Assembly (NCBI GenBank): GCA_001897305.1
Contig: MKSO01000001.1
Coordinates: forward strand, 90,001 to 122,000
Direction: 5' to 3'
DNA length: 32,000 nucleotides
Source of the DNA: Candidatus Saccharimonadota bacterium
GTDB lineage: Bacteria > Patescibacteriota > Saccharimonadia > Saccharimonadales > Saccharimonadaceae
Position 1 is the stretch's first letter; each line of letters opens with the position of its first letter. This document shows, piece after piece, positions 6,032-27,605 of this stretch. Under the pieces are notes generated by a model, which was given only the letters and a program-made list of their open reading frames with translations, ran no database searches and was not told the DNA's origin. A program made the position numbers and the translations under genes.

Positions 6032-6040
6032 TGCTATAAT
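6032..6040 (+). promoter_or_regulatory. extended -10 promoter TGCTATAAT
   Basis: Exact TGnTATAAT. The same 9-mer recurs before other genes in the window. Confidence 0.5.
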
Positions 6041-6050
6041 GAGCCGTACG

Positions 6051-6800
6051 ATGCGACGATTGGTGGGAATGAAACACAAAAAAGCTCCAAGCCCAGGCTT
6101 TACTATTGTTGAATTACTTATTGTTGTCGTAGTGATTGCAATCTTAGCTGCGATTGTCATTGTTTCTTATAATGGGATTAAACAGCGGGCGGATGCTTCA
6201 GCGCGCAAAACTGAGCTTAGCCAATTATCTCGAAAAATTCAAACGGACATACTACAGTCGACGGGTAATACGGTCGACATTAAAACGCCAATTGGCTTTG
6301 CAGAGGCATCGGGTACGACAGTGCTTGATACGCCGCTTGAGTCGGCGCAAGAGCTAACCCTTTATGGGGTATTTGATACGACGAACAGCCCAGCGACAGT
6401 TAGCTGGTCATCTATGATCGAATTATCCCCAAATAACAGTTCTAACAATTCAATTAAGCTCCGCACTGGTGCGGCTAGTAGCGATACGGCGCGAGCCTAT
6501 TACTCTACCTCATCTCAAACTAATCGTGACCTAACAAAAAATAATATCATGAACACAGCGAGTCGCCATATCGGTTGGGTGACCACTAATGGTGCTATGA
6601 TCTACGCGAGTTACGACACACAGTCAGATGCGAGCGCCTCGCTAACTGCGCATACTGGGTTTAACTTTAGCTCGGTGACGATGTATTCTGCCACGGCTTA
6701 TACGCCAGTCGCTGCCCTCGTTTTTGCGCAATATCACGACGCCACGACGCGACAACAAATTGTACAGTGGCTGAATCAGCAGTATACTGTGGGCCTATGA
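6051..6800 (+). CDS. type IV pilin-like protein (prepilin N-terminal methylation motif)
   Basis: Sequence KKAPSPG/FTIVELLIVVVVIAILAAIVIVSYNG matches the class III signal peptide plus hydrophobic helix. The ORF opens at 6039, but that ATG lies inside the -10 box. 6051 or 6069 (MKHKK) are more likely starts. Confidence 0.85.
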   Translation: MRRLVGMKHKKAPSPGFTIVELLIVVVVIAILAAIVIVSYNGIKQRADASARKTELSQLSRKIQTDILQSTGNTVDIKTPIGFAEASGTTVLDTPLESAQELTLYGVFDTTNSPATVSWSSMIELSPNNSSNNSIKLRTGAASSDTARAYYSTSSQTNRDLTKNNIMNTASRHIGWVTTNGAMIYASYDTQSDASASLTAHTGFNFSSVTMYSATAYTPVAALVFAQYHDATTRQQIVQWLNQQYTVGL

Positions 6801-7441
6801 AAATCGGCGTCTTTGATTCGGGCATTGGTGGCAAAGCAATTGCAGAGCGGCTCGAACGTGATTACCCCAGCGATGAAGTGCTCTACGTCAACGATAGTAA
6901 GCATGTTCCATACGGTAGCCGCTCAAGTGAAGAAATTATTTCTCTTACTGATGCGGCTATACAACCGCTTCTCGATGCACAGTGCGATGTTGTTGTCTTG
7001 GCGCGTAATACCGCTACGGCAGCGGCGATAGAGTTTCTTAGAGAGAAGTACCCGACTACACCTTTTGTGGGCCTTGAGCCGATGGTAAAACCAGCTGCCC
7101 AACAAACGAAAACGGGGGTTATTGCTATATGCGCAACTCCTGCAACATTAAACAGCAGCCGCTATAGAGGCTTGAAAGATACTTACGCAAATGATGTAAA
7201 AGTGGTCGAGCCGGACTGTAGCCGGTGGGCTTCTATGATAGAACACAATCAAGTACAGCACGGCCATATCGCGCGTACGATTGAGGGTGTCTTAAAGCAA
7301 GGCGCTGATGTTATTGTCCTTGCATGTACGCACTATCATTGGATTAAAGAGGAAATTACCGGGCTGGTGGCTGGAAGGGCAATAATACTCGACCCATCGG
7401 AGGCGATTTCGCGGCGCGTCGGTGTTATTATCGGGAGCTAA
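6797..7441 (+). CDS. murI: glutamate racemase-like protein with first catalytic Cys replaced by Arg
   Basis: MKIGVFDSGIGG N-terminus, VLARNTATAAA (canonical ACNTA[ST]) and VLACTHYHW (canonical GCTHYP). ATGA overlap with the pilin stop. 214 aa. Confidence 0.8.
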   Translation: MKIGVFDSGIGGKAIAERLERDYPSDEVLYVNDSKHVPYGSRSSEEIISLTDAAIQPLLDAQCDVVVLARNTATAAAIEFLREKYPTTPFVGLEPMVKPAAQQTKTGVIAICATPATLNSSRYRGLKDTYANDVKVVEPDCSRWASMIEHNQVQHGHIARTIEGVLKQGADVIVLACTHYHWIKEEITGLVAGRAIILDPSEAISRRVGVIIGS

Positions 7442-7442
7442 A

Positions 7443-7480
7443 TAAAAAAAAGCCGGCCTAGATGCCGGAAATTCTTTTTT
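7443..7480. terminator. bidirectional rho-independent terminator
   Basis: An A8 run, a CCGGC/GCCGG stem with a 6-nt loop, then a T6 run. It sits after the murI stop and after the minus-strand cassette. Confidence 0.6.
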
Positions 7481-7491
7481 GGAAGGTGGAG
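7479..7491. repeat. left inverted repeat TTGGAAGGTGGAG
   Basis: Exact reverse complement of 7812-7824. Confidence 0.9.
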
Positions 7492-7503
7492 ATAGGGCGC
7501 CCG

Positions 7504-7541
7504 GGGGCGAGAAGCACAGGACTGCTGTGACATCTCGCCCC
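7504..7541 (-). terminator. GC-rich stem-loop 8 nt after the stop of the small ORF (no U-tract)
   Basis: GGGGCGAGA (7504-7512) pairs with TCTCGCCCC (7533-7541). An inner stem forms from CACAG/CTGTG. Confidence 0.5.
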
Positions 7542-7549
7542 TCGCGGAC

Positions 7550-7810
7550 TCAGCTGTGTGCACATCGGCACAGTCCGCAGGCCTGTCGCCCGTGGTCCGG
7601 ATGCGGACAGTGAGTGCAGTAGGCGCCACCGTTGTGTGAGCCACCGCCCCAGCGCTTCAGGATGAAGCGGCCGATGAACACCAACGTGATGAGCGCAGCT
7701 GCGACACACGCGATGATGACCATCGTCGGCAGGAAGTAGCTGACGAAAGCCAGCACGATGATCGCGAATACCAGCCAGCCGACCGGGTTTTGTGCGAAGC
7801 GCTTCAGCAT
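7550..7810 (-). CDS. small two-TM membrane protein with Cys/His-rich C-terminal tail (86 aa), GC-rich foreign composition
   Basis: The ATG at 7810 is preceded by GGAAGGTGGAG. Sequence MLKRFAQNPVGWLVFAIIVLAFVSYFLPTMVIIACVAAALITLVFIGRFILKRW, then ...AYCTHCPHPDHGRQACGLCRCAHS (5 Cys and 5 His in the last 33 aa). The upstream part of the 165-aa track ORF is AT-rich and lies before the SD. Confidence 0.6.
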   Translation of the reverse strand: MLKRFAQNPVGWLVFAIIVLAFVSYFLPTMVIIACVAAALITLVFIGRFILKRWGGGSHNGGAYCTHCPHPDHGRQACGLCRCAHS

Positions 7811-7811
7811 G

Positions 7812-7824
7812 CTCCACCTTCCAA
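7812..7824. repeat. right inverted repeat CTCCACCTTCCAA (contains the SD of the small ORF)
   Basis: Exact reverse complement of 7479-7491. Confidence 0.9.
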
Positions 7825-7830
7825 GGTTCG

Positions 7831-7849
7831 TGAGGATCTCACGGTGAGA
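7831..7849 (-). promoter_or_regulatory. GTGAG-n3-CTCAC-n1-GTGAG palindromic array in the leader of the small ORF
   Basis: CGTGAG gat CTCACG is a perfect 6-bp inverted repeat (7829-7843). A third GTGAG copy allows an alternative pairing. Confidence 0.35.
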
Positions 7850-7864
7850 TTCTCTAACTATCTT

Positions 7865-7873
7865 ATTATACCA
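7865..7873 (-). promoter_or_regulatory. extended -10 promoter TGGTATAAT (minus strand) reading into the GC-rich cassette
   Basis: The reverse complement of ATTATACCA is TGGTATAAT. It lies outside the inverted repeat, in AT-rich backbone sequence. Confidence 0.45.
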
Positions 7874-7932: not shown

Positions 7933-7941
7933 TGCTATAAT
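7933..7941 (+). promoter_or_regulatory. extended -10 promoter TGCTATAAT upstream of pnp
   Basis: Exact TGnTATAAT about 120 nt upstream of the pnp ATG. Confidence 0.5.
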
Positions 7942-8061
7942 GAAGACACCCCACAGCGTCTAAGTGCTGGATAGAGCGGTTTGAGATGTTTCTCCAACTT
8001 CTGTACCCGTTACTTACTCGCTCGAAGAATAAAAGTGGGTCAAACAAGAAGGAGGTTCCTT

Positions 8062-25977: not shown

Positions 25978-26072
25978 TCACACCTGTTATGATATTGATT
26001 TTTAACACTTTTTGTGTTATAGTTCACTTATCGTGACGAGTCAAGGGTTTCTTTGATATTGTTGCGTGCACT

Positions 26073-26092
26073 CGGCGAGCGCCCGCTCGTCG
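26073..26092 (+). promoter_or_regulatory. near-perfect palindrome CGGCGAGCG-cc-CGCTCGTCG upstream of the island's first gene
   Basis: 8 of 9 positions are complementary across a 2-nt centre. It lies 25 nt upstream of the ATG at 26117. Confidence 0.3.
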
Positions 26093-26116
26093 TCCTTCCT
26101 ATCATTGGAGAAATTC

Positions 26117-26875
26117 ATGTTCAGCACCACCCGCCAGCGCATGAAGCGCGCAGCCGCCCTGGCCGTCACCCTCGGTTTCGTCGGTGTGGCTTTCGCCGTG
26201 GCAGCACCTGCTTCCGCGGACAACCTCCTGGAGGCCGGCGGCAGCGCCAGCGACGCGTACTGCGTCGATGGTGGAGCCGCTACCGACGTGGAGGTCTACG
26301 TCAGGCCCGCAACGGCGAACATCACCACGTACGTCAGCCAGTCCGTGGATGGAACGGGCATCGTCACTGACTTCGGTGGCCCGACCAACGCCAACGGTTC
26401 GTACAGCGTCACTGTTCCCATCGCCAAGCAGGGCACGACCGTGATCCAGTACGGCTACCTGCTGCCGTCCGGTGAAGGTGTCTTCGCGGGTGACCGCGAC
26501 TTCACCTTCCCGGAGAAGTGCGTGGTCGACCCGACTCCGACTCCGACCCCGACGCCCACCGAGACGCCGACGCCGGAGCCCACCCCGACGCCCACCGAGA
26601 CCCCGGTCCCGACTCCGACGCAGAGCGCCGGTCCGGTGACCCCCTCGGAGCCGTCGAACCCGTCGACCCCCGCCACGGGCAACACCGACACGTCGACCAA
26701 GGCGGACACGTCGCAGCAGAACACGCTCAACCCGGCCAAGACCGACGGCGCCGATCTCGCTTCCAGCAAGTTCGGCATCAACCCGTGGTTCGCCGGTTCG
26801 AGCGTCGCTGCGATCACCGCCCTGGTGATCGCGATCGCCTGGGTGGCTCGCCGCCGCCGTGGCGAGCAGCACTGA
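26117..26875 (+). CDS. secreted surface protein: signal peptide, ~100-aa domain, Pro-Thr linker, C-terminal hydrophobic anchor + RRRR
   Basis: The ATG follows TTGGAGAAATTC. MFSTTRQRMKRAAALAVTLGFVGVAFAVAAPASA/DN, then DPTPTPTPTPTETPTPEPTPTPTETPVPTPTQ, then ...AGSSVAAITALVIAIAWVARRRRGEQH. No exact LPXTG or LAXTG motif. Confidence 0.75.
   Translation: MFSTTRQRMKRAAALAVTLGFVGVAFAVAAPASADNLLEAGGSASDAYCVDGGAATDVEVYVRPATANITTYVSQSVDGTGIVTDFGGPTNANGSYSVTVPIAKQGTTVIQYGYLLPSGEGVFAGDRDFTFPEKCVVDPTPTPTPTPTETPTPEPTPTPTETPVPTPTQSAGPVTPSEPSNPSTPATGNTDTSTKADTSQQNTLNPAKTDGADLASSKFGINPWFAGSSVAAITALVIAIAWVARRRRGEQH
26528..26623 (+). repeat. coding tandem Pro-Thr (CCG/CCC-ACN) low-complexity repeat
   Basis: 32 codons of P-T/E repeats. 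The nucleotide units CCGACTCCGAC and CCCACCGAGAC(G/C)CCG recur. Confidence 0.85.
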
Positions 26876-27605
26876 CAACGGCCGTCGAGCGAGGCGTCAA
26901 CCCAAGAGTCGCCAGCGGCTTCTTCGGTATGCCTTCATCGCCCTGTGCACGCTGAGTGCACTCTGTCTGTTGGCGGGGTTTGTAATCCCCATGCCAGCGT
27001 ACAGTCAGGGTGCGGAGGGGTCGCCATCCATTGCGGTGGCGACCCCGACGGCCTCGCCGACGCCCATGCTGACGCCGACCCCAACCCGGTCGGCCACGCC
27101 CACTCCAACACCCAAGCCTCCGTGGCAGTTTGGCTCAGCCACGCTGTCGATTCCGGCGGCAGGGGTGAACCAGTCGATCACGCCGTATACCCAAGCGGAT
27201 ATCGACGCAAATGGTGGAGTGGAGCCGCCAGACATGGCTGCGATCTCGTGGGATACAACCATCCCCGGGTCGAAGTTGTCTGTCACCACCACGAACACCA
27301 TCTACCTGTATGGGCATTCGTGGATCGAGCCGGCGGTGTTCAACGACGTGTGGAAGCTCCAGCCTGGAGCGGCTGCTTCGATCACGTCGACGGCGGCTGA
27401 CGGTTCCGTGGAGGTGTTGGACTTCGTGATGAACGAACCTACCTTCACGGTCATGAAGCCAGATTTCGACTCCGACGCCCGAGTAACACCGGTGGATCGT
27501 TGTCGTCTGGTGGTTGTCAGCTGCTACCGGCCTGACGGGTATGACCCGCAGTCGAAAACGGTTGAGAATGTCGTTGCGATCTTCCAGCGACCCGCCTGCG
27601 GATAA
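26859..27605 (+). CDS. sortase-like transpeptidase (class-F-like), membrane anchored
   Basis: GTG start overlapping the upstream gene by 17 nt. A positively charged N-terminus plus TM helix (FIALCTLSALCLLAGFVI), a PT linker, then LSIPAAGV, LYGHS (His153) and VVSCYRP (Cys222). The start codon is uncertain. Confidence 0.7.
   Translation: MASSTDNGRRARRQPKSRQRLLRYAFIALCTLSALCLLAGFVIPMPAYSQGAEGSPSIAVATPTASPTPMLTPTPTRSATPTPTPKPPWQFGSATLSIPAAGVNQSITPYTQADIDANGGVEPPDMAAISWDTTIPGSKLSVTTTNTIYLYGHSWIEPAVFNDVWKLQPGAAASITSTAADGSVEVLDFVMNEPTFTVMKPDFDSDARVTPVDRCRLVVVSCYRPDGYDPQSKTVENVVAIFQRPACG

Follow-up and report, generated by a model that had tools for sequence, protein, structure and literature searches.

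A small minus-strand gene lies between a murI-like gene and pnp in the 32,000-nt stretch of contig MKSO01000001.1 analysed here (the whole of which we call the window), and it is bracketed by a perfect 13-nt inverted repeat. Does the repeat mark the ends of a piece of mobile DNA, or does it act in the RNA? An earlier note on this DNA offered both readings: the repeats could be the termini of a 346-bp cassette, or the small gene's 3′ untranslated region (3′ UTR) could be complementary to the ribosome-binding site (RBS) of its own mRNA. We favour the second reading, to which we assign a probability of roughly 0.7. The two repeats would be the RBS arm and the 3′ UTR anti-Shine–Dalgarno (anti-SD) arm of one mRNA, and the helix that they form would close the RBS in the full-length transcript.

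A perfect inverted repeat within a proposed single-gene transcription unit

The repeat consists of TTGGAAGGTGGAG at 7479–7491 and its exact reverse complement at 7812–7824, as the earlier note had stated. With one mismatch allowed, these were the only two matches to the 13-mer in the window, against an expectation of 0.03, and two matches arose in none of 100 dinucleotide shuffles, in agreement with the view that the repeat is unlikely to have arisen by chance. Nor is the 13-mer a common genomic word, as it might have proved to be: in the other ~230 kb of Saccharibacteria DNA that was fetched, it was found only at the same locus. We also compared the 25 nt before the start codon with the 130 nt after the stop codon for 32 other gene-sized open reading frames (ORFs) of the window. 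The longest perfect match in these genes was 4–7 nt, versus 13 nt for the small gene, and the pairing is therefore not a genome-wide habit.

In relation to the small gene, the repeat occupies a defined place within the following features, listed in the direction of transcription (MFE, minimum free energy structure).

7865–7873, minus strand: extended −10 promoter TGgTATAAT, read from the sequence, with the same box in homologous loci
near 7858, minus strand: predicted transcription start
7832–7854, minus strand: 5′-terminal mRNA hairpin with a 9-bp stem and one mismatch (inverted repeat I8), in both the MFE and centroid structures
7812–7824, minus strand: 5′ arm of the long-range helix, mRNA UUGGAAGGUGGAG, covering the Shine–Dalgarno (SD) sequence from −14 to −2 relative to the AUG
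7550–7810, minus strand: ORF of 86 aa, with two hydrophobic helices followed by a Cys/His tail in the family alignment
7504–7541, minus strand: GC-rich hairpin GGGGCGAGA...UCUCGCCCC with 9-bp perfect arms, 8 nt past the stop codon
7479–7491, minus strand: 3′ arm of the long-range helix (anti-SD), mRNA CUCCACCUUCCAA, between the GC hairpin and the terminator
7444–7478, both strands: bidirectional intrinsic terminator with its stem at 7453–7468 and A/U runs beside it, shared with the convergent murI

The minus-strand ORF, the position of the SD within the right-hand repeat, the GC stem-loop and the terminator beyond the left-hand repeat had all been predicted in the earlier note, and each was borne out. 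From the promoter (~7873) to the terminator (7444), the region probably forms one minus-strand transcription unit that contains a single gene. Because the promoter, the 5′ hairpin and the terminator lie outside the arms, the conserved unit is ~430 bp (7444–7873) rather than the 346 bp between the repeats. We propose that the GC hairpin at 7504–7541 acts as a barrier to 3′ exonucleases.

The ORF has homologues, which are described below. DNA was fetched for 13 further family loci, 12 of them mutually distinct, giving 14 family loci with the window. A −10 box is positioned 50–64 nt upstream of the start codon in 11 of the 13 homologous loci, and takes the extended form TGnTATAAT in 10 of the 13, often together with a good −35 element. 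The exceptions are L030 (TATAAT without the TG) and L039 (a weaker TGcTAGAGT), whilst L021 has no −10 box at the expected position upstream of its start; L031 was left out of the promoter comparison, as its contig offers only 54 nt of sequence before the start codon. A 5′-terminal hairpin of differing sequence is found at the same place in all 12 transcripts that were folded, and an equivalent GC hairpin, again varied in sequence, is present in L020, L024, L025, L031, L035, L036 and L038. The complete order of extended −10, 5′ hairpin, SD, ORF, GC hairpin, anti-SD and terminator is common to five homologous loci, or six with L024. Comparison of the RNA with Rfam gave nothing near the threshold of any family. 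No partner gene for the small ORF was found, and the small neighbouring ORFs vary between loci.

Complementarity between the SD and the 3′ UTR is kept whilst the sequences change

We designated as class A the six loci in which the 3′ UTR contains a GC hairpin, a short single-stranded anti-SD segment and a terminator. These are the window, L035, L020, L036 and L025, together with the weaker L024. Their arms, with the number of perfect base pairs between each SD and its own 3′ UTR, are as follows.

Window: SD-side arm UUGGAAGGUGGAG; 3′ UTR arm CUCCACCUUCCAA; 13 bp
L035: SD-side arm AGAGAAAGGUGAC; 3′ UTR arm GUCACCUUUCUCU; 13 bp
L020: SD-side arm CUGAAAGGUGAG; 3′ UTR arm CUCACCUUUCAG; 12 bp
L036: SD-side arm CUGAAAGGUG; 3′ UTR arm CACCUUUCAG; 10 bp
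L025: SD-side arm GAGAGAAGG, then AGG past a 2-nt bulge; 3′ UTR arm CCUUCUCUC, then CCU; 9 bp
L024: SD-side arm CUGAGAG(G); 3′ UTR arm (U)CUCUCAG; 7–8 bp

The arms occupy equivalent positions in the different loci, at −16 to −2 from the start codon and 57–100 nt past the stop codon. Their sequences vary between loci (TTGGAAGGTGGAG, AGAGAAAGGTGAC, CTGAAAGGTGAG and GAGAGAAGG), and complementarity alone is kept. When the SD of one locus was compared with the 3′ UTR of another, the matches did not exceed 9 bp, except for the pair L020 and L036, whose SD arms are identical. The complementarity within each locus had a shuffle P value of ≤0.005 in all five strong loci. In an alignment of the arms of all six loci, including L024, 87% of the cells pair, and 8 of the 13 base pairs have changes on both sides. 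The covariation score of this alignment was reached by none of 500 shuffles, and registers slid out of place pair at only 42–51%. The comparison of sequences argues that the pairing is kept in evolution through compensatory changes. The anti-SD reading of the earlier note, which had been drawn from a single locus, is supported by this finding of complementary SD and 3′ UTR segments, at the same positions and with different sequences, in five homologous loci (six with L024).

The long-range helix is predicted to bury the RBS of the full-length mRNA

The predicted window transcript (7858–7445; 414 nt) folds with an energy of −186.5 kcal/mol (z = −5.4). The 13-bp helix, the 5′ hairpin, the GC hairpin and the terminator are all present in both its MFE and centroid structures, so that the folding check suggested in the earlier note recovered the long-range helix. 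The helix is likewise in the MFE and centroid structures of the L035 and L020 transcripts, which have z values of −7.2 and −7.6, respectively. The mean probability of pairing between the SD region and the 3′ UTR was 0.61–0.85 in the strong class A loci, of which there are five.

The predicted accessibility of the region from −14 to +3 depends on the 3′ end of the RNA. In the four clearest loci it was ~0.3–0.6 in 5′ fragments of any length, and also ~0.3–0.6 in transcripts cut just past the GC hairpin, falling to 0.06–0.14 in the full-length RNA. The drop was weaker in L036 (only to 0.33), and there was no change in L024. The energies point in the same direction: the window duplex has an energy of −22.6 kcal/mol versus approximately −10.7 kcal/mol for the SD with the 16S rRNA tail, and in the five strong loci the helix has −15 to −23 kcal/mol versus −9 to −11 kcal/mol, where the 16S tail is the canonical, assumed sequence. 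By these calculations the helix has about double the stability of a duplex between the SD and the canonical 16S tail, and is predicted to bury the RBS. The fall in predicted accessibility from ~0.4 to 0.14, together with the helix energies, would fit a lowering of translation.

A model of RBS closure and its alternatives

The covariation, the folding and the energies together make a cis-acting 3′ UTR anti-SD, which shuts the RBS after transcription ends, the most likely mechanism. In this model, the arms would form the 13-bp helix once the whole mRNA has been made, burying the RBS, and the helix would limit translation, mark the mRNA for decay, or both. The protein might then come chiefly from nascent transcripts, or from mRNAs trimmed from the 3′ end back to the GC hairpin, which would have lost the anti-SD and regained an open RBS.

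Several points weigh against this model. The covariation alignment, of only six sequences, was hand-anchored on the complementary cores, and an AAGG core common to all of the SDs makes part of the complementarity automatic. A 3′ UTR anti-SD is present in only 6 of the 14 family loci, 5 of them clear; the eight loci that have no clear anti-SD are L038, L031 and six loci that we term class B, which have another way of closing their ends, and outside class A the folds do not consistently predict that the RBS is occluded. Folds predicted for RNAs of 400 nt often join the two ends. It should also be noted that the transcription start, the 3′ ends and translation are all predicted.

The six class B loci (L021, L028, L029, L030, L037 and L039) have no separate GC hairpin and anti-SD. 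Instead, a nearly identical terminator, CCCCUUGGAUACUGUCGAG...CCACUAUCCAAGGGG, directly follows the stop codon in five of the six, and the hairpin of L029 differs. Folding covered five class B transcripts, with L021 left out. In L028, L030, L037 and L039, pairing links a pyrimidine tract of the 5′ UTR (−27 to −11) to a purine tract at the stop codon, and the tract sequences differ between these loci; L029 closes its 5′ and 3′ ends via other segments. In the L028 fold (z = −6.0), the partner of the SD is the 3′ part of the ORF. Among the remaining loci, L038 buries its SD in a local hairpin, whilst L031, the upstream sequence of which is cut short by the end of the contig, combines a GC hairpin with a weak 6-bp match. 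From the modelled structures, end-to-end closure and strong structure appear to be family-wide.

Two side observations concern the class B loci. The terminator CCCCTTGGATACTGTCGAG...CCACTATCCAAGGGG is nearly sequence-identical in L021, L028, L030, L037 and L039, loci whose proteins are 35–50% identical and whose genomic positions differ. In addition, L021 and L037 have in common a downstream gene for a small membrane protein, with a conserved 5′ UTR (gtgggcaactccg.cca.gt.cttcccc).

A more specific version of the anti-SD model is that the unit is a type I toxin-like module, in which the protein is harmful if over-made and an inert, stored mRNA is activated by 3′ trimming. We consider this unlikely. 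Typical type I toxins are shorter than 60 aa and have one hydrophobic helix, whereas the proteins of this family have 76–104 aa and a strictly conserved Cys/His domain. The promoters are strong and near-consensus, the mRNAs are very structured (z = −5.4 to −7.6), the SD is predicted to be sequestered by the 3′ end and released on trimming to the stable GC hairpin, the single-gene unit is found at several different genomic positions, and the layout parallels that of aapA1 (PMC5416894), all of which would suit such a module. The regulatory partner is a difficulty: a consensus scan of the 14 loci detected no conserved antisense promoter inside or overlapping the transcript, only the promoters of divergent neighbours outside it, and no cis-antisense or trans-acting antitoxin RNA was found, the scan being limited to sigma-70-like promoters. 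The protein matched no toxin family in Pfam, NCBIfam or PADLOC. Furthermore, the predicted nascent transcripts leave the SD exposed, whereas hok and aapA1 hide it by metastable structures. If this doubtful proposal were nevertheless true, the unit could be the first module described in Patescibacteria/CPR (Candidate Phyla Radiation) that is type I toxin-like and self-silencing and makes a small membrane protein. Its strongly transcribed and extremely structured mRNA would be stored in an inert, end-paired state and be translatable only after 3′–5′ trimming to the GC hairpin, its product would be a membrane-anchored, zinc-binding peptide acting on the envelope or on nucleic acid at the membrane, and the family-wide excess of GC at third codon positions (GC3) would reflect selection on mRNA structure and not on codons.

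A second alternative, to which we give less credence still, is that the 5′–3′ pairing mainly stabilizes the mRNA by shielding its ends from RNases and does not repress translation. For Bacillus subtilis hbs, a 5′/3′ UTR interaction is reported to control RNase access (PMC5737220). In keeping with such a function, both of the 3′ UTR classes close the 5′ and 3′ ends, and a 5′-terminal hairpin is present in all of the folded loci. The class A helix, however, falls exactly on the SD and not at the extreme 5′ end, it is much stronger than the pairing of the SD with the 16S tail, and anti-SD-like sequences have been found experimentally to give lower mRNA levels and blocked initiation rather than stabilization (PMC12697547).

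Finally, it is highly improbable that the repeats are the terminal inverted repeats of a mobile or recombined 346-bp cassette, recently acquired from a high-GC donor: a perfect repeat does bracket a GC-rich patch, the family does sit at different genomic positions in different genomes, and a second, probably foreign, GC-rich island is present elsewhere in the window, but the arms differ between homologues yet stay complementary (the opposite of ends recognized by a transposase), there is no target-site duplication (flanks ...TTCTTTTT/TTGG and CCAA/GGTTCGTG, that is, ...TTTTT/TTGG... and ...CCAA/GGTTC...), each locus has one copy with no second in the 32 kb of this genome that was covered or in 39 loci, the conserved promoter, 5′ hairpin and terminator extend the unit beyond both arms, no transposase adjoins it, and the homologues are not those of a recent import, as set out below.

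Relation to known systems

To our knowledge, pairing of a 3′ UTR with the RBS of the same mRNA has been documented in only a handful of bacterial genes, mostly in Firmicutes and Proteobacteria, and the support usually comes from single-gene experiments and not from cross-genome comparison. We know of almost no post-transcriptional regulation in Saccharibacteria, an episymbiont lineage with reduced genomes. A related fold-back is seen in hok/sok, a type I toxin system in which the 3′ end of the toxin mRNA pairs back to the 5′ region and sequesters the SD.

The closest parallel in mechanism is icaR of Staphylococcus aureus, whose 3′ UTR binds the SD of its own mRNA, so that initiation is blocked and a substrate for RNase III is created (PMC3868564). 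In both cases a 3′ UTR motif is complementary to the mRNA's own SD region; in the window the match is 13 of 13 and co-varies across genera. The icaR mRNA has a long 3′ UTR with a short UCCCCUG motif, whereas the 3′ UTR of the small gene is ~105 nt long and holds a 9–13-nt arm between two hairpins. The two have no sequence homology, the icaR product is a transcription factor and not a membrane Cys/His protein, and the effect of the pairing is a prediction in our case.

The aapA1/IsoA1 system (PMC5416894) resembles the unit in its small hydrophobic product, strong promoter, highly structured mRNA and sequestration of the SD by the 3′ end, which for the unit is predicted. The full-length aapA1 mRNA is untranslatable until 3′ processing (PMC5416894); this processing to a translatable form is known for aapA1, whilst release by trimming is predicted here. 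The unit differs from both hok/sok and aapA1 in that no antisense promoter was found, the protein is larger with a conserved Cys/His domain, and no nascent SD trap is predicted.

In B. subtilis, pairing of the RBS with pyrimidine-rich, anti-SD-like octamers placed several hundred nucleotides downstream inhibits initiation and promotes decay, and anti-SD-like sequences are depleted from the natural genes of that species (PMC12697547). The pairing of a downstream anti-SD sequence with the RBS is the same as that proposed here, but instead of being depleted, the sequence is conserved by compensatory change in the 3′ UTR of a natural gene family. The proposed mechanism is known in kind, as 5′–3′ UTR pairing over the SD, and this instance of it is new, non-homologous, in Saccharibacteria and backed by covariation. 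Its interest lies in the support from compensatory evolution across divergent Saccharibacteria, and in bringing to attention an unnamed family of small membrane Cys/His proteins.

The encoded protein belongs to a rare, previously undescribed family

The 86-aa protein has two hydrophobic stretches and, as the earlier note observed, a tail with 5 Cys and 5 His. A word-indexed protein search with the single ORF returned no matches, and the family emerged when 1.84 billion cluster representatives were scanned exhaustively with HMMER, which identified 18 proteins at E≤1e-3, nine of them at E≤1e-10. These proteins have 76–104 aa and are 31–49% identical to the query. The family is rare, with ~20 clusters among the 1.84 billion representatives. 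It is also unnamed and previously undescribed, and we conclude that the ORF is a real gene. A longer gene call of 165 aa from a TTG start (P0019), as produced by some pipelines, was rejected as an over-extension, because the homologues begin at the N-terminus of the 86-aa form and the promoter falls inside the extension.

The proposed two-helix architecture was supported by the two hydrophobic stretches of the family alignment and by an AlphaFold2 model, in which residues 2–54 are helical with a predicted local distance difference test (pLDDT) score of 83–97. The Cys/His tail was modelled with a pLDDT of 60–69 and no secondary structure. The tail has the motif C65-x2-C68-x-H70-x2-H73-x4-C78-x2-C81-x-C83, within which C65, C68, H73, C78, C81 and C83 are invariant in the family and H70 is nearly so. 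These invariant columns fit a tail that probably binds metal.

Four of the residues (C65, C68, H73 and C78) have the C-x2-C-x4-H-x4-C spacing of a CCHC zinc knuckle, which is invariant in the family, and C65-x2-C68...C78-x2-C81 has the spacing of a short Cys4 zinc ribbon. Unlike a knuckle or ribbon, the protein adds the conserved potential ligands H70, C81 and C83 and a membrane anchor. There was no match to Pfam zf-CCHC, or to any other Pfam family, at E≤0.1, and a PDB profile search gave weak, non-significant matches to knuckles (Air2, E=0.12; retroviral nucleocapsids, E=0.5–4). No significant family match was obtained in Pfam, NCBIfam, PADLOC or PHROGs, and the insignificant hits were driven by the hydrophobic helices.

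The same Cys/His motif (FCQFCPHAAHGTERCSRCHC) was also seen in a soluble protein of ~70 aa, encoded at L032 (449–709, minus strand) and in L033. This protein is devoid of hydrophobic helices and terminates in an amphipathic tail. Because it has the motif and lacks the helices, the Cys/His module may also occur apart from the membrane anchor.

The family appears restricted to Saccharibacteria, and its high GC is a family trait

The earlier note had suggested an actinobacterial link, which did not hold for the host or for the gene. The window is identical to part of JAFKGM010000001.1, a 938-kb contig of GCA_017307155.1, and the relatives of its MurI are Saccharibacteria metagenome-assembled genomes, which places the organism among the Saccharibacteria (TM7) and not among the actinobacteria. 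The 12 distinct fetched loci have Saccharibacteria-like gene contexts, with genes for type IV pilin-like, CAP, L21, ParAB and LytR proteins and a GC content of 46–53%, and one locus is named Candidatus Microsaccharimonas. In the contexts examined, no homologue outside Saccharibacteria-like contigs was found among the 1.84 billion representatives. The family appears to be restricted to Saccharibacteria, an assignment drawn from gene context and GC content.

Further searches of contigs added little. Alignment-driven locus searches of metagenome and viral contigs found no block that was conserved enough, and a scan of viral contigs with the back-translated motif gave no matches. The same scan of metagenomes returned five contigs: two new family members, the window's own species and the two soluble-protein contigs.

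Within Saccharibacteria-like genomes, the gene is found at several sites. It lies between rplU and parA in L020, L025–L027 and L035, and between pth and der in L021 and L030 (the L037 contig covers the pth side only); it is beside hisS in L028, beside msrB in L039, and between murI and pnp in the window. The closest relative found, that of L035, is 60% identical and is located at the rplU–parA site, which indicates that the window copy is relocated or in a rearranged region. Neither the murI–pnp adjacency nor a family member was present in eight Saccharibacteria loci reached via MurI (57–67% identical).

The patch between murI and pnp is GC-rich, as had been noted, with 60–66% GC over 7400–7800 versus ~47–48% for the backbone. 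A local median of GC3 was available as a baseline for 12 loci, and the ORF lies above it in 11 of them (0.60–0.86 versus 0.44–0.61), including the window (0.79 versus 0.47); the exception is L037 (0.54 versus 0.58). This excess is common to homologues that are only 30–60% identical. The pattern argues that the GC-rich patch is a trait of the gene family and not the mark of a recent import from a high-GC donor. The foreign, actinobacterial origin implied for the patch is not supported: homologues were found only in Saccharibacteria-like contexts, and nearly all have the excess. It is possible, though unproven, that the family-wide GC3 excess and the strong folding result from selection on mRNA structure. 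Locally high GC3 may thus reflect mRNA structure and not foreign origin, a caution for calls of horizontal transfer that are based on GC content.

Genomic neighbourhood of the small gene

The flanking genes agree with the murI–pnp placement given in the earlier note: on one side is a murI-like Asp/Glu racemase (PF01177, E=7.6e-14) and on the other a polynucleotide phosphorylase (PNPase) with the RNase_PH/KH/S1 architecture. Nine contigs with the same ORF belong to the same species, at >99% identity. Seven near-identical contigs (L003–L009, from metagenome 3300009416) differ from the window by 18 point substitutions and one 10-nt insertion in ~1.3 kb of flanking sequence, comprising murI, pnp and spacer, and by no changes in the 414-nt transcript (7445–7858). 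The unchanged transcript may reflect constraint or simply small numbers, and the contigs are possibly error-bearing reads.

An extended −10 box, TGCTATAAT, is present on the plus strand at 7934–7942, ~120 nt upstream of the PNPase start codon (8063). If used, it implies a long pnp leader, diverging from the promoter of the small gene. Autoregulatory PNPase leaders are known in other bacteria.

Upstream of murI, a type IV pilin-like gene with an N_methyl motif (6039–6800, plus strand) encodes proteins of 243, 249 and 259 aa in near-identical contigs (L001–L004). The differences in length could be due to alternative start calls or to true strain variation in a surface protein.

The second GC-rich island of the window, at 26066–27605, has 65–70% GC versus 47% for the backbone and contains two plus-strand ORFs. 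The product of the first is a secreted protein of 269 aa that has a Pro/Thr-rich linker and, at its C terminus, a hydrophobic anchor and then RRRR; that of the second is a class F sortase-like protein of 248 aa (PF04203, E=0.0016, which falls short of the Pfam cut-off). Among the relatives of this sortase are proteins of Candidatus Microsaccharimonas (53%) and of the Microbacteriaceae genera Cryobacterium and Leifsonia (36–43%). Actinobacteria are known hosts of cultured Saccharibacteria and, unlike the small gene, this island could represent a real transfer between Saccharibacteria and actinobacteria.

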